Source: Squalus acanthias
Taxonomy: Eukaryota
Assembly (NCBI GenBank): GCA_030390025.1
Contig: CM059453.1
Location: 7,874,001-7,938,000, forward strand
Direction: 5' to 3'
DNA length: 64,000 nt
Program-made: the position numbers and the translations under genes
Notes under the pieces: generated by a model
What the model saw: only the letters and a program-made list of their open reading frames with translations
Databases searched by the model: none
Told to the model about the DNA's origin: nothing
In this document: piece after piece, positions 19,065-62,300 of the stretch
How positions within the stretch are numbered: the stretch's first letter is position 1
Layout of the letters: every line of letters begins with the position of its first letter

Positions 19065-19780
19065 GGGCCGAAAATTGCGTACTCTCGCGTATTCCCACTC
19101 CAATTGCCGGTTTTCTGCATGCCCTGCGCATGCGCTGAAAACCGGCAATTGCTCTTCTGAAAAGGGGGCGGGTCCTGGGTGCATCGCGTGCGCGCTACAG
19201 GCTGCGCACACGCTGTGCACTTCATGCTTTGGACGCGCAGGTAAGTACGGATGATTTTGGAAATGTAAAAAGGAGGAGTAAGACCCGCGTTTAAGAAGGT
19301 AAGTAGTGAATTAAGTATTTTTTTGAAATTTTTTTTACAGGTATATCTTTTTTAGAGATTTTAAAGACAGGTAAGTTTATTTTTATAACTTTTTAATAGA
19401 TTTAAAATTTTTTCAAAAATTAAATTTTTTATTTAAAATGGTTAATTTAATTAACTATACTTACTTTATTAATGTGATGGTTTTTTTTTTAAATTTAATT
19501 GAGGTTTAGCTGTTATTTTGGGGGGGGTCAGATTCATAGATTTCACAAGGTGCTGTGAAACTTATGAATGGAAGATGGTGTGCTGCCATTGGCTCTAACT
19601 AAGTCACGTGATCCCACAGCTCGCACGAATTCACTACGCCGCTGGGATACGCAAGCACTGCACAGCAGCTGTCCAGAACATCAAGTTCGTGCGAGCGGGA
19701 TCTGAAAAAGCACAAGCGAGGTGAGAGATCGCGGGAAAGCCTTACCCCCGCGGGAACAGAGCGAGATCATTTTCTGGGCC
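19065..19780 (+). mobile_element. MITE (PIF/Harbinger-like), ATT TSD
   Basis: Imperfect TIRs; empty site in the other LTR at ~16569. Confidence 0.88.
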
Positions 19781-20444
19781 ATTAAGTATATTACGCTGTA
19801 TCCTTAAAAAATCTTAATCTATTGCTCAAACATACTGGCTGCTGCCTATTGGTGTCTTGTCCAAGAACTCGGTGACCGTTAAAATCTTACAATACAGCAC
19901 ATTTAATAACATTTTAATTCATAGTTATTGAGAAATCCATTGAATGTTTATTATAGATATATTTTGATCAATATTTTAATGTATATTTGAAAAGTTTTTA
20001 TTAGGCATTCACTTGCTTTTTAGTGTATATTTATTTGGCTTTTGCAGGGCTGTGGTGAAACAGCAAGGGAGTGGGACCAATTGGCTAGCTCTTTCAAAGA
20101 GCCGGCACAGGCACGATAGAGTAACTAATTACCTTCTGTGTTGTATTATTCTATGATTCTACTGATAAACATCAGAACAGGAATGTTGGAGAGGCGGGTC
20201 AGTACGGTTTCCTGAAATTCAGTGCAAAAACTACTAATAAACTATTTGCCATCACAGTCTAACAGATTGCAATGTCCCAATTCAATTTAAAAACCACGTT
20301 GATTTCCATAAAGTAACTGTATGTTCCAAGCATCAAACAGAATGATTTGAATGAAATGTCGTATCGAGACCCCTTTGGTAAAACACCAGCCTTTACTATA
20401 ATTCAACCTAATACACCAAGACTGTGTATACCAGTAAGAGCAGA

Positions 20445-23405: not shown

Positions 23406-23756
23406 GTAAAATATTCATTTTAATAATTAATTTCAGAAGCGATTTCCATTCTGTGGGAAATTAACACGTTCATTGTTTGTGGAGATAGTACATGTTTAGT
23501 TGGTAATTTACAAATTCCCAATTTGCCCATTTAATGCATATTTCATTGGAAACTTTATCTTGTATTTTATAAGATTGATTTAATATTCACTCTATGATTT
23601 ATCGACATTCAATTGAATAACTAATGGATTCTGAAGAGTTTTAATGAAACTTTCACCAGTTTTAATGGATGTAATAATGAATATGTTAGTGGATGTTTAA
23701 AGGTTAAATTAATAGTATTTAACCTGACGGTCATGGTATGTTTTAATTGCGATATT

Positions 23757-24498
23757 GGGCCGAAAATTGATCCCGGTGCGCGAGAGTACGCACTGCGTAC
23801 TCTCGCGTATTCTCTCTCCAATTGCCGGTTTTCTGCATGCCCTGCGCATGCGCTGAAAACCGGCAATTGCTCTTCTGAAAAGGGGGCGGGTCCTCGGTGC
23901 ATCGCGTGCGCGCGACAGGCGGCGCGCACGCTGTGCACTTCATGCTTTGGACGCGCAGGTAAGTTCGGAAGATTTTGGAAATGTAAAAAGGAGTAGTAAG
24001 ACCCACTTTTAAGAAGGTAAGTAGTGAATTAAGTATTTTTTTGAATTTTTTTTAACAGGTATATCTTTTTTAGAGACTTTAAAGACAGGTAAGTTTATTT
24101 TTATAACTTATTAAAAGATTTTAAATTTTTTCAAAAATTTAATTTTTTATTTAAAATGGTTAACTTAATTAACTATACTTATTTTATTAATGTGATGGTT
24201 TTTTTTTAATTTAATTGAGGTTTAGCTGTTATTTTGGGGGGGTGTAAGATTCATAGATTTCACAACCGTGCTGTGAAACTTATGAATGGAAGATGGTGTG
24301 CTGCCATTGGCTCTAACTGAGTCACGTGATCCCACAGCTCGCACGAATTCACTGCGCCGCTGGGATACGCAAGCACTGCCCAGCTGATGTCCAGTACATC
24401 AAGTTCGTGCGAGCTGGATCTGAAAAAGCACAAGCGAGGTGAGAAATCGCGGGGAAGCCTTACCCCCGCGGGAACAGAGCGAGATCAATTTCTGGGCC
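23757..24498 (+). mobile_element. MITE in gene B intron 1
   Basis: TIRs, ATT/AAT TSD; empty site at ~40058. Confidence 0.88.
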
Positions 24499-24544
24499 AA
24501 TATTGCGGATTTCAATGGGTGTTTAATTTCTGTTTTTTCACCAG

Positions 24545-24925
24545 TTGTCCATAGTTTACGATGGTATGTGAAGGTGCCGTGGAATGTGTCGGCGGTGAGC
24601 GGGTCATGTGCTGAGATCCCGTGTACATTTGATTATCCCGCCTATGGCCGCAGTCCACGGGGTACGTGGTTAAAGGGGGGGCCTGATCCTGGAACCTCAG
24701 GGTTGTTGATTATCTGTGATTCCCGGAATTCAGACAAAGTGCCCTTGAACTATAGAGGGCGAGCTCAGTTCACTGGCGACTTTGAAAAGAAACAATGTTC
24801 CTAACGGTTAAAGGACATCAGGAAGATCGATGAAGGTGTTTATTATTTCATATTGAAGATCATCACCGCCCAGAATACTACAGGAGAATATTCTACCGAA
24901 ACTAAGGTCACTCTTTCTATTTTAG
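24545..24925 (+). pseudogene. Gene B V-set Ig exon with in-frame TAA (24802-24804) and essential Arg replaced by Ile
   Basis: GSCAEIPCTFDYP...W...GRAQFTGD..KQCS*...DEGVYYFI; 381 nt like the paralog; TTA to TAA and AGA to ATA relative to gene C. Confidence 0.88.
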
Positions 24926-33876: not shown

Positions 33877-34589
33877 GGCCCAAAAATTCGTGAGGAAGCC
33901 TTCGTGCGAGGGTAAGGCTTCTGCGCGATCTCTCACTGCGCGTTGGCTTTTTCAGTTCCAGCTCGCACGAACTTGATGTTCTCGACAGCTGCTGTGCTCG
34001 GCTTGCGTATCCCACAAGCGCAGTTAATTCGTGCGAGCTGTGGGATCACGTGACTCAGTTATAGCCAATGGCAGCACACCATCTTCCATTCATAACTTTC
34101 ACATCAGTGCTGTGAAAGCTATGAATAATATAGCCCCCCAAAATAACAGCTAAACCTCAATTAAATTTTAAAGAACATCACATTAATAAAATAAGTATAG
34201 TTAAATAAATTAACCATTTTAAATAAAAAATTAAATTTTTGAACATTTTTTAAATCTTTTAAAAAGTTATAAAAATAAACTTACCTGTCTTTAAAGTCTC
34301 TAAAAAAGATATACCTGTTAAAAAAAATTCAAAATAATACTTAATTCACTACTTACCTTGTTAAAAGTGGGTCTTACTCCTCCTTTTATTATGTGTAAAA
34401 TCTTCCATACTTACCTGCGCGTTGAAACCACTAAGTGCACTGCATGCGCGCAGCCTGTAGCGCGCACGTGGTTCAGCTAGGAACCGCCCCCTTTTCCATT
34501 CACCAAGTGCCGGTTTTCAGCGCATGCGCAGTGCATGCAGAAAACCGGCAATTGGAGACAGAATACGCGAGAGTACACAGTGCGTACTC
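33877..34589 (-). mobile_element. MITE, reverse orientation, one end truncated
   Basis: Reverse complement of the 19065/55604 family. Confidence 0.85.
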
Positions 34590-37990: not shown

Positions 37991-39666
37991 CAAAGTGTGA
38001 CATGGTTCTTAGCACACATTCCCTGTCTCCCACTTTCTCTGTCATATTCTCTCTCTCAGGCTTTCTCTCTCTCACTCTTTATTCTGTAGAAAACCTAATA
38101 GATACCATGAAAATTTGATCTTAAGAAGCTGAGATTCTTGAAGTAAATAGTGGCCTAATATTTATGTTATTAAATAGAGGGCAAGAAATCTATTTAATAG
38201 TTACAGCAACAGGTGGTACTAGGAAGTTACCAGGTGCAGGAAGTACTGTGAGAGTAATTAAGTGGGGTAGAATTTGATATTGTCAGTGGCATAAAGAAAT
38301 TAAGGGAACTGCTTACCTCAACAACAGGGTCGTGCTTAAGAAAACCAGCAAAAAGCACATAGCATACCTTCAAGGAGATAATAAAGTTAAATACATAACA
38401 AGAAATAGAAAATGCAAACTAATAATACAGTGTGAATGAAATCATTGCAATGTGGAATATCTTAGGTGTTGTTGGATGTAGGTTTGGGCGGAGAGGTGGG
38501 GGTGGAGATTATTCCCGAGACAGCAGAAAAATAAGCAATTTGCTCAGGAAACTGTAACGGATTTCATATTTAGAACTGTGCAAATGGAAAAGAGTGAGTT
38601 GTTCAAACTGCACGAGGCTCATCCGAGGTGCTTTACTGAGATCTATAAGGTAATGTAGCGATTGATCACTGACCCCTTCATGGTAGCAGTGATACGGTCC
38701 TCTTATCTTCCAACTAATCTGAACTGATTCTGCTTCTTAATCAGGTGCGAAATGCGCACAGTTTGAAGCTGGACTGTGTTCGAATGAGATGCCCGTTTGG
38801 ATCCAGGATTTGATCCCACTGATCAATTTGCAGAGTTTTTTTCCTGTAGATAAAAATATCCACGTTATTTCCAGCAGCATTGACCCTCCAATCTAAATGC
38901 TCACGTCAAACCTCACAGTTCTAGCACTAAAATCAGAATCTTCATAAACCCGTCATTGTAGCAACTCGGATCTCAATGAGTTAATTTCAGCAGATTTCAT
39001 CTCGCTGCAGTGTCAGTATAAACAGCTGAAGTCACTTCTATAAATGGCACTTTACCCACTGGAAACTTTTTACTGATACACTTCTTTGTATCTTTTGGCA
39101 TTTCAGATACGTGTTGTGTCCCCGAACTACTGAAGGTGATCAACCCACACGTCTGTAGACAACGGCTACAGGAATAACCACAGCTTCACACTTCAAACAC
39201 TCACAGTGCAAGGGCTGATAAATAGCTCAGTGTGTGGGAGTTGTGAGTCGGGGCTTCTAAAGCTGGTGGAGAGGCGATTTTAGATTTTGCAATCTAAAGT
39301 GTCACCGCCTGTCCTGTAACTGTACAGATGATGAGGGGTTCATCTCTGCTCAGGGTTAATCAGCAGTAACCGGGCCTCATCATATCGTGTAACTGAGGGC
39401 CAATCACTGATGCACACTGTCATATTCGAAGTGGCCCCAGATTTCCAGCAGTTTTGATCATCAACATTTGAGGAGTGGCGAAAGCTGTGTGAGCTACCGT
39501 GGCTCTCAATGATTGGTGGGTGGCGAACAGCTGACGCCCTAATACTCTGATTCGATTCGCTATGGACTCCAGTCTATTACCGGCGAATGGAATCTAGAAA
39601 CTTGATTAATTATATCTGAGATAAAAACAATTTCTGCCATTTTGACATCGTCAACCGCCTCCAGTC

Positions 39667-39709
39667 ATGAAGAGTATTACATTGATCTCCATTCTGATAT
39701 TTAGCGAAG
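39667..39709 (+). CDS. Siglec-like gene C, signal-peptide exon (MKSITLISILIFSE)
   Basis: gtcATG...G|gtaaaa, phase 1; paralog of 23363-23405. Confidence 0.82.
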
Positions 39710-40103
39710 GTAAAATATTCATTTTAATAATTAATGTCAGAAGCGATTTCCATTCTGTGGCAAATTAATACGTTTATTGTTTGTGGAGATAGTACATGTT
39801 TAGTTGATAATGTGCAAATTCCCGATTTGCGCATTTAATGTATATTTCATTCGAAAAATTATCTTATATTTTATAAGATTGATTTAATATTTACTCTCTG
39901 ATTTATCGACTTTCAATGGAATACTTAATGGAATATGAAGAGTTTTAATGAAACTTTCTCGAGTTTTAATGGATGTATTATTGAATATGTTAGTGGATGT
40001 TTAAAGATTAAATGAATAGTATTCAACTTGACGGTCAGGGTATGTTTTAATTGCGATATTATTGCGGATTTCAATGGGTGTTTAATTTCTGTTTTTTCAC
40101 CAG

Positions 40104-40484
40104 TTGTCCATAGTTCACGATGGTCTGTGAAGGTGCCGTGGAAGGTGTCGGCGGTGAGCGGATCATGTGCTGAGATCCCGTGTACATTTGATTATCCCGC
40201 CTCTGGCCGCAATCCAGGGTGTATGTGGTTAAAGGGGGGTCCTAAACCTGGTACCTCAGGGGTCTCGATTGTCTATGATTCCAGTGATGCAAACAATAAA
40301 GACTATAACGATAGAGGACGAATTGAATTCACCGGCGATTTTCTAAAGAAACAATGTTCCTTACAGATTAATGTCACCAGGAAGAGCGATGCAGGTGACT
40401 ATTACTTCAGAGTGAAGATCACCACCGCCTGGAATATAACAGATCAATACGTTTCCAAATCTCCTGTCTCTCTTTCTATTTTAG
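40104..40484 (+). CDS. Gene C V-set Ig exon, intact, with essential Arg (DAGDYYFRV)
   Basis: Open 381-nt exon, ccag|...|gtaagt; Siglec-type Cys pattern (GSCAEIPC, CSL) and F-strand Arg at 40409-40411. Confidence 0.92.
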
Positions 40485-41288
40485 GTAAGTGTTTTTATTT
40501 GCTCCTGTTGTATTTTATATTCCATCTCCTCAGTGCCATTGAACTTACGACTAACATACCAATATCCCGAGTAATTGTTGGCCCATGTCACATGATACAG
40601 CGGCAGGACTGCTCCGCTGACTCTCACCCAGGTGTGTGTTATGTTTTGACTTGAACTGTAATAGGGCGCAGGCCTTCTTAATAACTTACAGAAGCTCCCT
40701 GGCAAGGCAAGAAGAATACTTTATCATACGAATATATTAAACTGCAGGTGGAGGAAATATACAGGTAGATGTGAAATTCTATGCAAAGGAAGCAGGTGGA
40801 CCATTTCTGTAAATAGACTGCTTGATGTGGTGCCGAAGCGTTACGCCAACAGTGTCCCAGATTCTATCCCATGTCTGTGCTTGGGATAGAATCAAGGACA
40901 CGCTTAGTCTAATGACTCAGTGTCAGATCAAACAATTAATTTACCCAAAGCGGCATGGACGGGTTGAATTGTTGCTGATATTTGAAAGTTTCATTTTGCA
41001 TTTTGAGCAATGCAGTGAGTGCGTGGTCAATAAATCACCTGACAATAATGTGAATTATTCACGTGATAAAGCGACTGACTATTAATTATACGAGTACATA
41101 AATGCTCCGATTGATTCTTTAACTCTAAGAACTTTTAGCATATTTCGATGCACCATAGCGCGGGAAAAAAACAGTAGATGAATTCTTAAGGGGATATTTT
41201 CTCAGACTTTGGGCTGAATCACCTTGCACACCATTGGCCATTTTAAAATTGAAATCTACTGTAACGCGAATGTCCTTCTCTCCTTATT

Positions 41289-41349
41289 ATAAACCACGGA
41301 TATCAGTCTCTGGGGAATTGATTGCTAGAAAACCAGTACACCTGACCTG
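41289..41349 (+). pseudogene. Truncated 5' remnant of gene C domain-2 exon
   Basis: KPRISVSGELIARKPVHLT then an abrupt switch to CR1; AG acceptor absent. Confidence 0.85.
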
Positions 41350-41350
41350 T

Positions 41351-41805
41351 AGGCGGTTCACTAGATTTATTTCAGGGATGAGAGGGCTGTCCTATGATGA
41401 TAGGTTCTGAAGAATGGGCCTATAATCTCTGCGTTTAGAAGAATGCGAGGTGATCTCATTGAAACATGCAAAATCTGAAGGGGATTGACAGGGTAGATGC
41501 TGAGAGGTTGTTTCCCCTGGCTGGATTGCCTAGAATTAGGGGGCATAGTCTCAGGATAAGGGGTAGGCCATATAAGTTGAAGATGAGCAGGAATTCTTCA
41601 CTCAGAGGGTTGTGAATCTTTGGAATTCTCTGCTCTAGACTGCTGTGAATGCTGAGTTTCAAGGCTGAGGTGAATCAAGGGATATGGAGATCGGGTGGGA
41701 AAGTGGAGTTGAGGTCGATGATCAGCCATGATCTTACTGAATGGCGGAGCAGGCTCGAGGGGCCATATGGCCTACCCCTGCTCTTACTTTTTATATTCTT
41801 ATGTT
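41351..41805 (+). mobile_element. CR1 3' part at the inversion breakpoint
   Basis: Starts mid-RT (cggttcactaga) and ends in a tail. Confidence 0.85.
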
Positions 41806-43107
41806 ATTAAATGTAATTATCAGTGCGGATGAGGAATATAAAATAATAGATGTGACAACTAAAGAAGAATATTGAAGTAAGATATAGTGGCTATCTTGCA
41901 ATCTATTAATTCAAAATCCATTTCCTGATTTTTATGCCCTCGATCTTACGCTTATGTCAAACATACGCATTCCTTCTCCTCTTCTCTTCAACGATTTGAA
42001 GATGGATATGTTTTCCCGCATAATGTTCTATTCCACCGGTACATCAACCTCGTGGCAATTCCTACCAGATTAAGTACGGTGGACTTTCCCATGTCTTACA
42101 CAGGGGTGCTGAGGCTAATTATAGAATCCAGACTAACGCCCCAGCTAAATTGTGCCACAGGTTAGCAAGGCCATGAAAAAAAACAAGCACTGGAGTTTAT
42201 TTCGAGAGGGATAGAATTGAAAGGTATGGAGGTTATGCTAAACCTGTATCGAACATTGGTTAGGCCACACTTGGAGTACTGCATACAGTTCTGGTCACCA
42301 TATTATAAAAAGGATATCGAGGCACTGGCGAGGGTGCAGAGATTTACAAGGATGATACCAGAAATGCGAGGGTATACATATCAGGTAAGGATGAACAGGC
42401 TGGGTCTCTTTTCTCTTGAAAAAAGAATGCTGAAGGGTGACCTAATAGTGGGCTTTAAAATTGTGGCAGGCTTTGATAGAGTCGATGCAGAGAGAATGTT
42501 CCCACTTGTGGGGAAGAGCATAAATGGTGGTTATCAATATAAGATAGTCACCAAGAATTCCAATTGGGAATTCAGAAGAAATTTTTTACCCAGAGTGAGG
42601 TGAGAATGTGGAACTCGCTACCACAGGGAGTGGTTGAAGCGAATAGTAAAGATGCATTTAAGGGGTGGCTGGACAAGCATATGAGGGAGAAGGGAATAGA
42701 GGGTTACGCTGATAGAATTTGATTAGGAAAGATAGGAGGAGGCTCGAGTGGAACATAAACGCCGGCATGGACTGGTTGGGCCCAATGATTTGTTTCTGTG
42801 CCGTATGTCCTATATATGTATGTGAGTTAGCTCAGACCATGAATGGACTCTCCCTGGCCTGTATGTTCCAGTTACTCTGTGGCTGAAACGACATCAAACA
42901 TTGGGAGCCTTTGCAATAAAATTTCAGGTAAACCCTGGAGCGACCAATATTACTCATGGGTCTGGGGTAAATGTCAAATAATGTGACTTACATGAAGCTT
43001 CGATTACTTGTTTATCCAGGCGCGCTATCACTATATTCAATATAAAGACATCTATTGAACCGGTTTATCAACAAGTTGGTTGAATGAAGCTTAGAGTAGG
43101 CACTTAC

Positions 43108-43419
43108 ATTTAATATCCGGTGTAAGAGTTGCTTGAACGGTAGCTGTGACACCGTCGGCTATAGGTTTACATCCCAGTTTCTTCCCATGATGGTCCGGTG
43201 ATGGGCTGAAGTTAAAAGTGGATGAAACCTTCTGGGAACCCTCGACCTTGTCGCCATTTCCTTTTGAAGTTTTACTCTCTGGCAGAAAAGGAGGGACAAC
43301 ATAGTCATGAGTCCACATCAGTTCAAGGTTGGTGGACGGGCAACTGTGGGTGACTGAGCAGGTCAGGTGTACTGGTTTTCTAGCAATCAATTCCCCAGAG
43401 ACTGATATCCGTGGTTTAT
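43108..43419 (-). pseudogene. Gene C domain-2 exon, full length but inverted, acceptor lost
   Basis: 312 nt like 25692-26003; ORF 43091..43474(-) KPRISVSGE...CSVTHSCP...DHHGKKLGC. Confidence 0.9.
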
Positions 43420-43734
43420 AATAAGGAGAGAAGGACATTCGCGTTACAGTAGATTTCAATTTTAAAATGGCCAATGGTGTGCAAGGTGATTCAGCCCAAA
43501 GTCTGAGAAAATATCCCCTTAAGAATACATTCTACTGTTTTTTTCTCGCGCTATGGTGCATCGAAATATGCTAAAAGTTCTTAGAGTTAAAGAATCAATC
43601 GGAGCATTTATGTACTCGTATAATTAATAGTCAGTCGCTTTATCACGTGAATAATTCACATTATTGTCAGGTGATTTATTGACCACGCACTCACTGCATT
43701 GCTCAAAATGCAAAATAAAACTTTCAAATATCAA

Positions 43735-44510
43735 TTTGTTGCACCGCCTCCAAGGCAAGTATATCCTTCCTTATTTAAGGAGAACAAAACTGTGCACAGT
43801 ACTCCAGGTGTGGTCTCACCAAAGCCCTGTACAATTGTAGCAAGACTTCCTTACTCTTATACTCCAACCCCCTTGCAATAAAGTCCAACAAGCCATTTGC
43901 CTTCCTTATTGTTTGCTGTACCTGCATGCTAGCTTTCTGTGTTTCTTGCACGAGGCCACCAAAATATCTCTGAACACCAACATTTGAAATGTTCTCATCA
44001 GTTAAAATATATTCTGCTTTTCTATTCTTCCTAGCAAAGTGAATAACCTCACATTTCCCTACATTATACTCCATCTGCCACCTTACTGCCCACACACTTA
44101 GTCTATCTATATCTCTTTGCAGACTCTTTGTGTTCTCCTCACAGCTTACTGTCCCAACTAGCTTTGTATCATCAGCAAACTTGGATACATTACACTCGGA
44201 CCCTTCATCTTGGTCATTAATATAGATTGTAAATAGCTGAGACCCCAACACTGATCCTTGTGGCCCCACACTAGTTACAGCCTGCCAACCTGAAAAAGAT
44301 CCGTTTATCCCTACTCTCTGTTTTCTGTTCGTTTACCACTCCTCTATCCATGCTATTATATTACCCCCAATCCCGTGAGCCCTAATCTTGTGTAATAACC
44401 TTTTATGTGGCACCTTATCGAATGCCTTTTGGAAATCCAAATATACTACATCCACTGCTTCCCCTTATCTATCCTGCTAGTTACATCCTCAAAAAACTCG
44501 AATAAATTTG
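43735..44510 (-). mobile_element. CR1 RT part at the other inversion breakpoint
   Basis: PQGSVLG, KFADD; ends at ..ALEAVQ. Confidence 0.88.
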
Positions 44511-44542
44511 TCATTCAGAACCAATGACCTCATCTCTTGCAG

Positions 44543-44800
44543 ATGCCCCACAAAAACCGTTCATCAATTCCTCTATAGCGGCAGTGGAAGGGAGTTTGTT
44601 ATGGTTATACTGCACGACCCGGGGGATCATACCGGGCAACTTAACGTTGGTCCGAAATGGTGAAGAGATCAGCACGTCTTCCACAGGTGAACTGAAGCAC
44701 ATATTCCATAACATTAGTTCTGAAGAAAACGGTGAATATTGGTGCGTGGCTGACAATAACTTGGGCAAAGCGAACAGCTCCACACAGATTTCTGTACAAT
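44543..44800 (+). CDS. Gene C Ig domain 3 exon
   Basis: ttgcag|...|gtaagt; 258 nt, open; paralog of 27332-27589. Confidence 0.9.
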
Positions 44801-45262
44801 GTAAGTGCTGTGTCAACCTATCAAATGTATATTGGGACATTAATCCGTCTTACAGTGATTAGGCATCGGTGTTGTTTTCCCCCAGTGTTCAAATAACTGT
44901 CTCAAAATCCGTCAGTTAGATTGTCAGAATAGTCAGTAAAAGAAGGAGAGTTGAACCCAATTCTTGGAGTAAACGACATTGTTAAAAAAAGCAACTGGAG
45001 ACCCCAATACACAACACAAGTTCAATGTTTCTCTGATTGGCTAAAACCAACTGAATGATTAATTGGGAAGATTTTCTGCTCGGCGGACTGAACCCAATGG
45101 CCAGGATGTATCGGAACATTTTAGTCCATCACAAAGGTAGAAATTTATAATGTTAACTAAAGACAAAAACTGAGCAGAAGCTATTGAGCTGTTTACCTGA
45201 AATGGCATGTTGAAGGAGTTAGTCGGGTTTATTTCTAAGATTGTAACTCGGGAGGCCTCACA

Positions 45263-47980
45263 ACATAGAAACATAAGAATTAGCATCAGGAGTTGGCAAT
45301 TCGGCTCCACGAGCCTGCTCCGACATTCAATAAGATCATGGCTGATTTTCGAAATCAACTCCACTTTCCTGCACTATCCCCATATCGCCAGATTACCCTC
45401 GAGTCCAAAAATCTAAGAGGTCTCACCTTTAAAATACTCAACGATTCAGCATCCACAGCCATCTGGGGTAGAGAATTCCAAAAATTCACAATCCTCTGAA
45501 TGAAGAAGTTCCTCCTCATCTCAGTCTTAAATGGCTTCCACTTATCCTGAGACTGTGCCCCCTGGTTCTAGACTCCCCAGCCAGGATAAGCATACTCTCA
45601 GCATCTAACCTGTCAATCCCCCTCAGAATAACTTGTTTCAATGCGATCACCTCACATTCTTCTAATACTCCAGCTCGTATAGGCTCATTCTACTCAATCT
45701 CTCCTCAAAGGACAACCGTCTCATCCCACATGTTGTTCCAGGAAATATAGCGATCAATTGACTGCTTGACGCAATGTTAAACCTGATTTATTGCCTTGCC
45801 AGAGACTAGGGGAAAAGAAAGTCTGATGAAGCCTTAAATGAATGTAACATTTAATGGTTCTGATCGAGCTCGTTATGCGCAGTGACCTCTCTTCTTAATC
45901 TAAACGCCGAAATTGGTTCTACTTTGGCGCTGCAAACTGCTGTATGGAAACTATCTCAATTTGACTTCACTTTTTTTAGATAAACCCAAAATAGTATCAG
46001 GCCCGACCTGCACCAGCTCTGAGAGTGGGATTCATTGTAACTGCAGTGTCGGAGCCAAGCCCCCAGCAAACATCACCTGGGGCATCAATGGAATAAACAT
46101 CACCGCGAACAGTTCAGATATCCAAATCTTCTCCTTGGAGTTGAATAGTCACCTGGTGCAGAGCTCCCTGACACTGACTCACCCAAATGGAACTGGACAC
46201 CGGATCTCATGTTTTGGAGTAAACGAGCATGGCGTTACTGTCGGCAAATACCAGCTCCAATCTGGAGGTAAATACTAAATTTTCCTGTAATATAAGTACT
46301 GCGAACGGTTTGGTCCATCACCTGTCAGTGACTAACTGAACGGTGTTAATGTGAACAAATAACAGTTCCATTCGACAGCTGCATGCCAAATCCAAGTACT
46401 TTAAGTCTGATCCATTGGATATTTGAAGCATTGTATGGTCTGGCCAAAAACTCATTGAATGTTGCGATGGGAATATTGAATGCATTTTAAATCTGTCTCT
46501 CATTTCCGGGTGTGTTTCTTGTCGCCTTGTTTTTCTCACGATTGTAAGGGATTAAAATATAACATTAGAAGTAGCGCGCAATCGTTAATACAACAGAACC
46601 TTCTGAATCAATTTAGCCCTTTGCGAATTCAGGTGTCCTCTCACTCTAACGGAAGCCGGCAGCAGTCTATCATTTAATTGAACATTTGCACAATTTTAGT
46701 ATCGATTTCTGATGTAGGATACACTTGTCTTAGAGGCGGTTCACTAGATTGATTCCTGAGATGAGAGGGCTGTCCTATGAGGAGAGTTTGAGTAGATTGG
46801 CCCTACACTCTCAGAAGATTAGAAGAATGAGAGGTGATCTCATTGACACATATAAGGTTCGGAGGCGATTGACAGGGTAGTTGCTGAGAGGTTGCTTCCC
46901 CTGGCTTGAGAGTCCAGAACTAGCGTGCATAGTCTCAGGATAAAGCGTGAGCCACTTAAGACTGAGATGAGGAGGAATTTCTTCACTCAGAGGGTTGTGA
47001 ATCTTTGGAATTCTCTACCCCAGACGGTTGTGGATGCTGACTCGTTGAGTATATTCAAGGCTGGGATCGATAGATTTTTGGACTGCAGATAAATTAAGGG
47101 ATATGGAGTTTGGGGAGGGAGTGGAGCTGCGATCGAAAGTCAGCCATGATCTTATTGAATGGCGGAGCAGGTTGGAGGGGCCGTAGCAGCGATTCCAGCT
47201 ACTAATTCATATGTTATTTTGTTCTCATGAACTTGCTAGTTTTGAATATTTAAACCAATGTGTCCAGCTCGCTCAATAAAACACATTTTGGAGCTATTTC
47301 AGATTGCCCCTGGATTGTTGTCATGGAGATATTATGAGAAGATACCATGAGATAATCCTGAAAATTGAGCGAGAATATTTGGGATAATTGAAAGAGCAGG
47401 AACTAGATTGATTTGAAGTATTGGATAGCAGGCGAACAGAACCGATTGTGCAGCGAGGATATAGGCAGGCTGCCGGGGTTATACCTGGAAACATATATTT
47501 AGTCAAATCATTAATCACATGTTTTCAAGGTTGATGGCCCCATGTAATTCAAACATCGTATGGTATGAAGAGTAGTCGCGAGTCCCTTAAGGCCCAATTT
47601 TGCAAAACAACTCAGTTAGAATCATAGAGATTTACGGCACAGAAGGAAACCATTCGGCCAATCGTGTCTGTGGCAGCCGAAAAAGAGCTATCCAGCCCAA
47701 TCCCACTTTCCAGTTCTTGCTCCGTAGCTTTGTAGGTTACGGTGCATCAAGTGCATATCCAAGTACTTTTTAAATGCAATTAGGGTTTTTGCCAATATCA
47801 CTCTTTCAGGCAGTGAGTTCCATTCCCCCAGAACCCTCTGGGTGAAATAGGTTCCACTCAAATCCCCTCTAATCCTTCCACCAATTACTTTAAATCTGTG
47901 CCCCCTGGATATTGACATCTCACCTAAGGGAAATAGGTCAATCCTATCCACTCTTTCTACGATTCACATAATTTTATACA
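45263..47980. mobile_element. Three CR1 3' fragments (45263-45728 -, 46715-47225 +, 47618-47980 -)
   Basis: TQRV..WNSLP-type ends and tails. Confidence 0.8.
45980..46267 (+). CDS. Gene C Ig domain 4 exon
   Basis: ttttag|...|gtaaat; 288 nt, open; paralog of 31912-32199. Confidence 0.88.
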
Positions 47981-49948: not shown

Positions 49949-50033
49949 CAACATTTCCCTGGGAAATTGTCATCCCAGTACTAGCAGCCGCCGGAGTTAT
50001 ACTGCTGATCCTGATCCTGGTGATGGTGCACAG
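49949..50033 (+). CDS. Gene C transmembrane exon (ATFPWEIVIPVLAAAGVILLILILVMVHR)
   Basis: Canonical splice sites; 5 of 85 nt differ from gene A. Confidence 0.88.
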
Positions 50034-55140: not shown

Positions 55141-55603
55141 CTCTTTCCTCAGGCCCTTGCCTGATAACAACCTCAGCATGGGCAGCAAGTGTATCTCAGT
55201 GAAGTCCAACAGTCCTGTTTGAGTGAAGCTAGTTTTTTAACTGCAATTTCCCATAAGAGAATCAGAAAAAACAATAACAAGCTAAATTTGAAGAAAAATT
55301 GATTCGTTTTAGTCAGAGGAATAGAAAACAGAATCCAGGTTTTCAAACTGACTCAAAAAGGAAATTCCTTTCTCTCGCAGTTGATAACTCCAATGGACTG
55401 GACTTAAGCTATGTAATATGAGGAATGAATGTGTTAACGCACTTTCTCAAAGTCCTGTCTGTAATTATAAAATGTTGATCGCATTTTGCATTAAACCCTT
55501 CCGTCTGCTCTTTAGACAGTTTGTCAAGACAATGTGTGCAAATCGTTTCTGTTGAGCAAGGCATGAAACACTTGTCTGCGACGTAATAGGGTGTTGAAAC
55601 AAT

Positions 55604-56342
55604 GGCCCAAAAATTCGTCCCGCGACGCGAGAGTACGCACTGCATACTCTCGCGTATTCTGTCACCAATTGCCGGTTTTCTGCATGCACTGCGCATGCGC
55701 TGAAAACCGGCTCTTGGTTTTTGGAAAAGGGGGCGGTTCCTCGGTGCACCGCGTGCGCGCTACAGGCTGCGCGCACGCTGTGCACTTAGTGCTTTGGACG
55801 CGCAGGTAAGGACGGAAGATTTTAGAAATGAAAAAAGGAGGAGTAAGAGCCACTTTTAACAAGGTAAGTAGTGAATTAAGTATTATTTTGATTTTTTTTT
55901 AACAGGTATATCTTTTTTAGAGACTTTAAAGACAGGTAAATTTATTTTTATAACTTTTTAAAAGATTTTAAATTTTTTCAAAAATTTAATTTTTTATTTA
56001 AAATGGTTAATTTATTTAACTATACTTATTTTATTAATGTGATGGTTTTTTTAAATTAATTGAGGTTTAGCTGTTATTTTGGGGGGGTGTAAGATTCATA
56101 GCTTTCACAGCACTATGTGAAACTTATGAATGGAAGATGGTGTGCTGCCATTGGCTCTAACTGAGTCACGTGATCCCACAGCTCGCACGAATTCACAGCG
56201 CCGGTGGGATACGCAAGCACTGCCCAGCTGATGTCTAGAACATCAAGTTCGTGCGAGCTGGATCTGAAAAAGCCAACGCGGAGTGAGAGAACGCGGGGAA
56301 GCCTTACCCCCGCGTCAACACTCAGTCTTTAATTTCTGGGCC
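55604..56342 (+). mobile_element. MITE, AAT TSD
   Basis: aat-GGCCC...GGGCC-aat; empty site at ~3852. Confidence 0.9.
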
Positions 56343-56680
56343 AATGTGTGAAACACATGCCTGTCGTTCAAACACAGTCTTAACAAACAGCAACTCTCCC
56401 CCGTCTGATACTTACTCGGTGTGCACGCACTTTACAAAACTCCTCCATTTCCTGTTTAAACAGTATTAACTTAATGTGCGGAATTCCTGTCTACAATTCT
56501 AAAGGAACACTGTGCAGGCTGATCATTCCTCCCAGTGCAGACTGCACCATATCATTCACCAGCTTCATTAGATAGGGAGAACACCTCATTTATACATTTG
56601 GAAGTGTAAGGATAGAAAAGTAACGGGAATCAAATCCTGTCTATGCTAATCAGGAAATGTCAGACAGTCAAGTCACTGAT

Positions 56681-59278: not shown

Positions 59279-59398
59279 AGACAAGACATGTATGGAGACA
59301 CTGATGTGAAAGGGACTCCATCAAACCGGTCAGCTCAAAGTGAAGAGGTCCTGTATGCCGCTGTCAGTTTTTCAAAAGTTCACAAGATAGAGCAATAG
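59279..59398 (+). CDS. Gene C terminal exon with ITIM VLYAAV; premature TAG before SEYAAI
   Basis: TAT to TAG at 59396-59398; ancestral frame continues to TGA at 59444-59446. Confidence 0.85.
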   Translation, partial: RQDMYGDTDVKGTPSNRSAQSEEVLYAAVSFSKVHKIEQ

Positions 59399-62300
59399 CT
59401 CCAGAACGAGGAGACAAGTGAATACGCCGCAATTAAATTTAAATGAAATCCACTATTCTGACAGATGGAATCTATCAATATCAACACGACTGTTGTTATG
59501 ACTTAGAATAGGAATTTCACATTCCAGGAATTACGTTGTGAATGGACATCTATCAGAGATTAATTGCTATGATTTCAATTCTCTTTGTGAGAAGATTTGA
59601 TTTCCAATCCCAAACGAGTTTCTGTTGCAAGCCTTTGTCTGAAATTGAGCAATAAGCAATATTTAACTCAATGTAATTTTAAACTATTTTATCTGCTTTA
59701 ATAAAACAACCTCTCAGCTTCTATCCTGTCAATCCCCTTCGGAATATTTTGTTTCAATGAGTTCACCTCTCATTCTTCTAAACTCCAGAGTGTCTAGTCC
59801 CATTCTACACAATCTCTCATCATAGGACAGCCCTCTCATCCCAGGAATCAATCTGGTAAACCTTCGTTGCACTGACTCCAAGGCAAGTATATCCTTCCTT
59901 AGATAATGAGACCAAAACTGTACACAGTACTCCAGGTGTGGTCTCAGCAAGGCCCTGTACAATTGTAGCAAGACTTCCTTACTCTTACACACCAACCCCT
60001 TGCAATAAAGGCCAACATGCCATTTGCCTTCCTTATTGCTTGCTGTACCTGCATGCTATCTTTCTGTGTTTCTTGCACGAGGACACCCAATCTCTCTGAA
60101 CACCAGTATTTAAATGTTCTGCACCATTTAAAAAATATTCTGTTTTTCTATTCTTCCTACCAAAGTGAATAACCTCACATGTCACTGCATTATACTCCAT
60201 CTGCCACCTTACTGCCCACTCACTTAGACTATCTATATCCCTTTGCCGACTCTTTGATTTCTCCTCACAGCTAAATGCTCCACCTAGCTTTGTATCGTCA
60301 GCAAACTTGGATACATTACACTCATGCCCTTCATGTAGGTCGTATATATATATTGTAAATAGTAGAGGCCCCAACACTGATCCGGATTGAGCAATCTGTA
60401 CGAGGCTCCTTTGATTACGTCACTGTACTCTGCAATGGAAGACAGCAGTTGACCCTTAACCTCAGCTGTATGCCAGCAATTGCACAAGCCTCTTATCTCG
60501 TGCAGGCAGATCTCATCTGAACTGATTCTGTTTCTCAATCTAATGATTAAGGTCGACGTGGCTTACTTGAGATTCCGATTGAGTCCAGAATTGGTTCAAA
60601 CTGATCAAATTAAAGGGACTTGTTCATGTAGATAAAATATGGTAATATTGTTTCATGCAGCATTGACACTCGAATGTAAAAGCTGAAGCCACACTTCCCA
60701 GATCCAGCATTGAAATGAGAAAACAATCATAAAAGGGTCACTGTGGCAACTGGGATATGAATGAGTTAATTTCACCAAATGTCATATCGCTGAAGTGTGA
60801 ATATATACAGTTGAGGTCACTTCGAAAAATGGAAGTTTACCGTGTGAAACTGTCAAACTATTTTGACCCTTTGACATTTCAGCCTGCTGAAGGTGATAAA
60901 CTCACATGTCTGCAGAGAGCGGCTACAGAACAAACCACAGCATCTCGTTCACAGCACATTGGCAGCCAAGTACCTAAACATGTGAGAGATATGAGGTTAA
61001 AGTGTGCGCACGAGGCTATTTTAGATATTCGAATCATAAATGTTAGTTCCTGTCCTGTAACTGTGTAGCTGATGAGGGGGGAGGAGGGGTAATTCTCTGT
61101 TCGGGAGTCTTTGGCATTATGTTGATATCATCATAGCAAACGTAATAACGATATTTAAGAAGGGGGATAGAACATTTCAAGGGAATTATAGACCAGTCAG
61201 CTTAACATCGGTGGGAGAAAAATAATGGAATCCCTACTTAAGGAGAAAATGGAAGAACATCTGGAAACCAAAAATATAATAATGAATGGTCAGCATGGAT
61301 TTCAACAGGGAAAGTCTTGCTTGACCAACTTTATTGAATTTTTTGAAGAGGTAACTGCGAGAGTAGACAATTGCAATGCAGTAGATGTAATTTATCTGGA
61401 TTTTCAAAAGGCCTTCGATAAGGTACCCCATAATAGACAGATGAACAAGGTCAGCGAATCTGGAGTCAGGGGACAAGTAGCAGATGGGATTGCTATCTGG
61501 ATTCAGAACAAACAGCAGAGAATAGGAGTAAAGGGCAGCTATTCACAGTGGCAGCAGGTGGGTAGTGGTGTGCCACAAGGATCAGTGCTGCGAACACTGC
61601 TGATCAAAATTTCCATTAACGATTTAGACTTTGGAATCAAAAACATTTTCTAAATTTGCAGATGACACCAAATTGGGGGGGATAGTCAATACTGAGGAGG
61701 ACTGCAACAAATTACAGGAGGACATTAATAAACTTACAGAATGGCCAAATAATTGGCAAATGAAGTTCAAAACAGATCAACGTGAGGAATTACATTTTGT
61801 TAGGAAGAATAGGGAGGTCACTTATTACTTGGATGGTGTGAGTCTAGGAGGGGTAGAGGAACAAAGGGATCTCGGAGTACAAATACACAAATCACTAAAA
61901 GTTGTGCCACAGGTTAGCAAGGCCATAAAAAGCAAAATCAAGCACAACGCTTTATGGATTGTTTCTAGAGGGATAGAATTGAAAAGTAGGGAAGTTATGC
62001 TAAACCTGTAGGTGCAGAGAAGATTTACAAGGATGATACCAGAAATGCAAGGGTATACCTATCAGGAAAGGATGAACAGGCTGGGTCTCTTTTCTCTTGA
62101 GAAAAGAAGGCTGAGGGTGACCTAATAGAGGACTTTAAAATGATGAAAGGTTTTGAGGAAGTGGATACAGAGAGAATGTTTCCACTTGTGGGAAAGAGCA
62201 TAACTAGAGGCCATCAATATAAGATAGTCACCAAGAAATCCAATAGGGAATTCAGAAGAAACGTCTTTAACTAAAGCGTGGTGAGAATGTGGAACTCGCT

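Follow-up and report, generated by a model that had tools for sequence, protein, structure and literature searches.

A 2.4-kb inversion in a Siglec-like receptor gene of Squalus acanthias, over an immunoglobulin exon that had probably already lost its splice acceptor

In one receptor gene of Squalus acanthias, here called gene C, the exon for the second immunoglobulin (Ig) domain lies reversed between two copies of an inverted duplication, which raises the question of whether the inversion cost the receptor that domain. Gene C lies within a 64-kb stretch of a 3.7-Gb genome (C30:7874001-7938000; the window, to which coordinates without a contig name refer), and the proteins nearest to its product in protein comparison are shark MAG-like and Siglec-like models. 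A genome search with its V exon gave 150 scored matches, many on C30 at 6.0-8.05 Mb. For the closest paralogs, 330 kb and 374 kb of sequence were taken and annotated for the leader (L), V, D2, D3, D4 (D2-D4 being the successive Ig domain exons after V), transmembrane (TM) and two tail exons; gene counts omit partial genes near C30:7025-7043 kb, 7829570, 7946723 and 7991099, and distant genes at C30 6862 kb and 7674 kb were used as tree outgroups only. Genome-wide, only six V exons are at least 96% identical to that of gene C or are its own. These six genes form its clade (two inverted, four uninverted, including two near-identical pairs) and cluster in both the V tree (99/97) and the D2 tree (97/94), which were midpoint-rooted and built without a clade test. 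Judged by its sequence, the cluster is crowded with decaying genes: 12 of the 15 D2-bearing neighbours carry a lesion between L and D4, and three are lesion-free. In the literature on Siglecs of sharks, other cartilaginous fishes and teleosts, covered mostly as open-access text without supplements, no paper on the present cluster was found; the same kind of text yielded none on a D2-less Siglec.

The original copy of the duplicated sequence (arm 1, 40976..41349, plus strand, 374 nt) runs from intron 2 (313 nt) across the dead D2 acceptor into D2 (first 61 nt), and its counterpart on the inverted block (arm 2, 43359..43733, minus strand) has 375 nt. As the first-pass annotation of this DNA had stated, the first is the reverse complement of the second (98.9% identity over 375 columns, with three substitutions and one indel); no other inverted pair of at least 80 nt in a self-comparison of the window exceeded 92% identity. 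The same annotation had the reversed segment run from 41350 to 43733. Its reversal is evident against four close uninverted paralogs, but its start is misplaced, since the true block is 41355..43733 (minus strand) and holds the 3' part of a split retroelement, intron 3, the whole D2 exon and the duplicated arm. Against the uninverted paralogs at C30:7050577 and 7739069, the window aligns on the plus strand to 41349, on the minus strand from 43733 to 41355, and on the plus strand again from 43735. Two uninverted paralogs that share the intron-3 retroelement thus keep the ancestral order A-R-M-B (R being the 374-bp arm), which in gene C has become A-R-(5 nt)-reverse M-reverse R-(1 nt)-B. Both junctions recur in a second gene, the twin, 49.3 kb upstream of gene C, and the inversion is real in assembly GCA_030390025.1. 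The twin is 99.2-100% identical to gene C in 500-nt bins over 39000-44500 and 86-94% identical outside ~38500-47000; within this tract of ~38.5-47 kb, bins are mostly 98-100% identical, with one at 94%. We infer that an ~8.5-kb tract with the inversion was copied between the two genes by gene conversion or unequal crossover.

The title claim of the first-pass annotation, that the inversion removed D2 from gene C, is not supported by the state of D2 in the other members of the clade. Gene C has a complete D2 exon in antisense (43108..43419, minus strand), with a dead acceptor, and a sense remnant (41289..41349, plus strand) without an AG before its start; both D2 starts were checked, and the absence of an acceptor AG from the two copies was correctly noted. 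The D2 acceptor is missing in all six clade genes, and an in-frame TAA interrupts D2 in five of them. Among 15 D2-bearing close paralogs, 14 keep the AG and one has lost it differently. Since acceptor loss and TAA also occur in uninverted clade genes, D2 was not killed by the inversion. All four uninverted members lack the acceptor, so the earlier proposal that acceptor loss came first holds. In gene C, codon 39 (43303-43301) is TAT where the other five clade genes have TAA; because the twin has TAA, this is most simply read as a later back-change. A sequencing run that bears the name of a different organism offers two single contigs at depth 2-3, a hint and no more: the first agrees exactly, over 89 letters, with the dead acceptor, and the second passes from 41349 into D2 in its uninverted form. 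Outside the clade, an ITIM gene at C30:7158257, intact in other respects, has lost its D2 acceptor independently, by a change from CAG to CAT.

The remaining exons of gene C suggest a shorter receptor. An open leader exon of phase 1 (39667..39709) is followed by a Siglec-type V-set exon (40104..40484) with Cys21, Cys26 and Cys84, Cys39 (specific to the clade) and an F-strand Arg102, then by open Ig exons D3 (44543..44800, acceptor and donor intact) and D4 (45980..46267) and an open TM exon of the uncharged type (49949..50033), all on the plus strand. The exon phases of V, D3, D4 and TM are 1-1-1-1, as predicted earlier for the V-to-D3 joint, and from these phases gene C would likely splice V straight to D3, skipping D2. 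D2 itself is a symmetric-phase Ig exon that is disabled between open flanking exons, as in a KIR-type pseudoexon. The first cytoplasmic exon (C1, 57830..57917, plus strand) has two donors, one after 57878, in frame to the last exon, and one after 57917, which includes a TAG. Through the upstream donor, the uncharged TM is joined in frame to VLYAAV in the last exon (59279..59446, plus strand), a motif which we take to be ITIM-like from the general ITIM consensus; a premature TAG (59396-59398) then removes the distal SEYAAI motif. Because of this TAG, the predicted V-D3-D4 product has 407 residues rather than the ~430 first suggested, and an intact tail as in the upstream twin would give 423. 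All 11 genes with C1 have the two donors, 39 nt apart, and its longer, ancestral-looking form contains a shared TAG, in six genes directly after a VSYxxV/L motif. The length of the cytoplasmic tail may be set by the choice of C1 donor.

Several features of the inverted segment may bear on splicing. The inversion places several acceptor-like and donor-like sites on the sense strand, which could make poison exons, and a speculative in-frame mini-exon of 42 nt can be drawn in the sense D2 remnant (plus strand, from a weak AG at 41305-41306 to a GT at 41349-41350). Computed from the sequence, the arms would pair in the pre-mRNA as a duplex of 372 bp, so that the proposed looping-out of the segment by the inverted repeat is physically plausible, yet it is unneeded to explain skipping. 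For human genes, the accessible text of one study (PMC8052449) associates RNA loops with reduced exon inclusion, but nothing in the duplex loop of gene C needs silencing now.

The reading that we favour, and hold to be rather probable, is that a 2.4-kb inversion with a 374-bp inverted duplication hit a D2 exon that no longer had an acceptor in any member of the clade, and that gene C, likely spliced from V to D3, would encode a three-Ig inhibitory receptor of 407 residues. In all six sister genes a short sugar-sensing product would likely arise by splicing round D2. Whether the clade is expressed and functional is close to an even call. L, V, D3, D4 and TM are open in all six genes, and none of the 52 substitutions in L, V, D3, D4, TM and C1 of the clade is disabling, against ~4.2 disabling changes expected without constraint (P ~0.015, calculated without regard to conversion, by which intact exons can be brought in, or to the non-independence of six genes with two near-identical pairs). 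The alternative that the whole clade has been pseudogenic since acceptor loss, its open frames reflecting youth and conversion and the inversion being neutral debris, is somewhat unlikely. It would accord with a dN/dS near 1 in D4, a replacement-rich D3, the tail stop of gene C, the damage in 12 of 15 neighbours and the retention of an unpaired Cys21. It accords poorly with the lack of disabling changes, with a V exon that varies by 2.6% against 3.6-8.3% in flanking non-coding DNA, with three genes that still have the arginine and full ITIM tails, and with the occurrence of both tail types beside the same V. Replacement and silent changes in the clade number 25 and 6 in D3 plus D4 and 6 and 4 in V, so that amino-acid constraint is not evident in D3 and D4, and dN/dS inside the clade gave no clear signal.

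A second alternative concerns what the inversion may have taken away. D2 contains an internal acceptor, in frame, 141 nt into the exon and 3' of the TAA, from which a potential half-D2 exon of 171 nt (43108..43278, minus strand; 57 residues) would run in frame to an intact donor; it has lain antisense since the inversion. Because the inversion turns the internal acceptor and the D2 donor antisense, it may have removed this half domain, overlooked in the first-pass annotation, and not the whole domain. According to the stronger form of this argument, which we consider unlikely, the clade had switched to the internal acceptor (V-half-D2-D3), and the inversion removed the last spliceable piece, changed the protein and was possibly favoured. 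The half exon is indeed open with an intact donor in five of six clade genes, but one uninverted clade gene has a frameshift in it, and it has gathered eight replacement changes against one silent. Five differences separate the clade from other genes in the 36 nt before the internal acceptor: two lie in the tract and replace a purine by a pyrimidine, and another two, which produce the stop codon, at the same time create CTAA at -25, which is presumably branch-point-like; even so, the tract holds 13 of 17 pyrimidines against 11-12 in D2-bearing paralogs. Furthermore, RefSeq models of Heptranchias perlo (XP_067831352-4) join V to D2 residue 48, at the same place, and in a fold model of the H. 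perlo protein the half domain scores low (pLDDT blocks 36-66), as a linker would; these models are, however, predictions. The presence of the inversion in two genes would fit a favoured change, but conversion alone can give two inverted copies. In the reading of a late inversion over an already dead exon, the inversion is most likely a tolerated passenger, with the loss of the residual half-D2 exon and the D2 donor from the sense strand as its one plausible effect.

That the inversion is an assembly artefact is scarcely credible, for although the locus is densely packed with near-identical tandem genes and the junctions are present in one assembly only, the arms differ at four places (two changes common to both of the separate inverted genes and two private to gene C, with one more private to the twin), the bases at both junctions are absent from uninverted paralogs and the flanks differ between the two inverted genes. 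Among public contigs, a search of four runs with 41290-44900 gave no piece bridging either junction, matches being swamped by the retroelement, and a search of four runs with 41230-41395 placed 2, 0, 3 and 0 contigs, none across junction 1. Of 12 public runs considered, none was on record as RNA that contains this DNA, and three presumed RNA runs had a share of 0.00, a result without bearing on expression. The arms differ by ~1%, whereas the inverted block has 61 lineage-specific changes in ~2,000 aligned bases (~3%); therefore the inversion is late and the duplication much younger than the lineage. The order of events would have been (i) acceptor loss and the TAA in the clade ancestor, (ii) expansion of the clade with exon shuffling between neighbours, (iii) a late inversion in one gene, (iv) copying of the ~8.5-kb tract across 49.3 kb by conversion or unequal crossover, and (v) the private tail stop of gene C.

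The junctions point to how the inversion may have formed. Junction 1 carries a 5-nt filler (41350..41354, plus strand), whose last 4 nt, continued into the adjoining bases, match the retroelement in a form with 11 nt deleted, and junction 2 carries a filler of 1 nt (43734..43734, plus strand); neither has perfect microhomology. The left break lies in unique intron and exon DNA and the right break inside one retroelement, whose 5' part (43735..44513, minus strand) is the remnant of a non-LTR reverse transcriptase that matches Pfam RVT_1 (E 1e-8; the name CR1 was the label of the first-pass annotation). One element was split by the breakpoint, as had been suspected: its halves are contiguous in uninverted paralogs, with no base lost. 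A second copy (46720..47226, plus strand) has the same 11-nt deletion and is a candidate template for the filler; it predates the inversion and is also found in both uninverted paralogs. The deleted form makes up 6 of 39 motif hits in 704 kb, which lie either at junction 1 or in a single clade-specific copy 5.4 kb further downstream, and the filler was probably templated, from this copy or by slippage in the broken element. The ancestral form has no repeat pair at both ends, which speaks against ectopic recombination. The arm sequence has one copy in uninverted paralogs and two inverted copies in gene C and the twin, and such a one-sided inverted duplication fits the known staggered-break or template-switch class, the origin proposed in the first-pass annotation. 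The origin was likely one staggered break (or template switch) plus one flush break; two replication template switches yield the same product as a staggered break.

One-sided inverted duplications account for 12 of 18 cases, more than any other form, in the accessible text of Ranz et al. (2007; PMC1885836). Gene C resembles the inversions described in that text in that formerly unique sequence is duplicated in inverted orientation at the breakpoints, in that the duplication comes from one breakpoint only and in that polarity can be read from it. It differs from them in being a 2.4-kb, intragenic event rather than one of chromosome scale, in having one break inside a retroelement and in a 5-nt filler that looks templated. 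By itself, the inversion is an ordinary, textbook rearrangement. A templated filler would also fit replication template switching, a known class of mechanism. Error-prone repair was considered as a source of clustered mutations at the junctions and rejected, as lineage changes are spread evenly, at 4-12 per 250 nt, across the block and the first 500 nt of the right flank.

The V domain of gene C matches Pfam V-set and Ig_CD22 above cut-off. Its fold model has a pLDDT of 88, with sialoadhesin as the best structural match (TM 0.77-0.78); folding covered V alone and the H. perlo half-D2 model. In alignment, Arg102 corresponds to the Arg in NFR of sialoadhesin and in FFR of Siglec-10, which we take to be the essential Siglec arginine. 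Gene C shares with Siglecs (sialoadhesin, MAG, CD33-related) the V-set fold, cysteine pattern, F-strand arginine, Ig stalk, TM and ITIM-like tail, but it differs from them in an extra Cys39, a missing distal tyrosine motif and the lack of D2 and hence of the V-C2 disulfide. It is called Siglec-like here because, by sequence, the Siglec features are present and the V-C2 feature is not. Cys21 is kept in gene C without a partner exon, the D2 acceptor being dead and D2 antisense. Because the normal partner of Cys21 is in D2, the product may fold or traffic poorly. The V-C2 disulfide is needed for one binding mode of Siglec-6, the mutants still being expressed well, in the accessible part of that study (PMC10122656). 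Pairing of Cys39 with the orphan Cys21 is unlikely, as the modelled Cys21 sits where strand 22-29 begins and Cys39 inside strand 35-43, places that lie far apart in general V-set geometry.

The V exon also occurs with a second type of tail. In the genes at C30:7101782 and 7844494, the clade's L, V and dead D2 are joined to D3, D4 and a TM with Arg that derive from another lineage, and the last exon is degraded. These two genes are likely the activating partners of the four ITIM-tailed clade genes. The TM Arg of these two genes lies near the start of the TM, unlike the mid-TM Lys that DAP12-coupled Siglecs carry. Near-identical V exons on four inhibitory-tail genes and two TM-arginine genes without an ITIM are as in paired Siglec-11/16, so far as the available text describes them (PMC5701461), and the same pattern may be likened to Siglec-5/14.

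Receptors without D2 are not peculiar to gene C. Among 25 proteins mapped, three, from S. canicula, S. torazame and H. francisci (Scyliorhinus and Heterodontus), are D2-less V-D3 models of the same build. Asp replaces the interdomain Cys in two of these three, whereas gene C keeps Cys21. No older D2-less member with a Cys-to-Asp change was seen in a 200-kb sample of the cluster's more distant part. The closest analogue, in the text available to us, is pseudoexon 3 (D0) of lineage III KIR genes and Mamu-KIR1D, in which an Ig-domain exon is retained but skipped, recurrently in functional genes, leaving a clustered immune receptor one domain shorter (PMC6288254, PMC2194033). As far as those texts describe it, the KIR pseudoexon has intact splice sites and its skipping is seen in transcripts, whereas in gene C the acceptor is destroyed and skipping is predicted from the DNA; unlike the KIR case, the exon was later inverted and the lost domain is the disulfide partner of V.

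Interest lies more in the clade than in the inversion. Arg102 is present in all six clade genes and in none of the readable V exons of 15 close paralogs, so that, among the close paralogs, possession of the Siglec arginine coincides exactly with the loss of D2, and the genes concerned bear inhibitory and likely activating tail types. It is a distinctly improbable proposition that this young shark clade of arginine-bearing paired Siglec-like receptors sheds a V-linked C2 domain presumed to be obligatory, in steps that can all be seen in one genome (acceptor loss, an internal-acceptor half-domain linker, an inversion silencing the remnant in a 374-bp RNA duplex, and spread to a second gene by conversion), its products being working sialic-acid receptors without the V-C2 disulfide. 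If expressed, the genes form a naturally occurring series, with full, half or no D2, in which to ask whether a Siglec needs the V-C2 disulfide, and a dated example of exon retirement in a tandem receptor family; if not, they represent ordinary decay in a birth-and-death cluster.

Other observations concern the cluster at large. Gene C and the gene at C30:7051014, which lie 863 kb apart, have identical V exons (40104-40484 in gene C); the identity falls at the start of arm 1, consistent with a recent long-range conversion tract over L-V. At C30:7829570 and 7946723 the leader is followed directly by D4, and V to D3 were not found there, while triple D2 copies occur at C30 7032-7041 kb. Gene B, the reference used in the first-pass annotation, has a TAA in its V exon (24545-24925) and an Arg-type TM and looks like a pseudogene. 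An element of ~700 bp, with terminal inverted ends, is present in four copies in the window (23756-24501, 19076-19784, 33906-34589 and 55603-56345; 87-95% alike); one copy sits in intron 1 of gene B, and the element looks like a non-autonomous DNA transposon.
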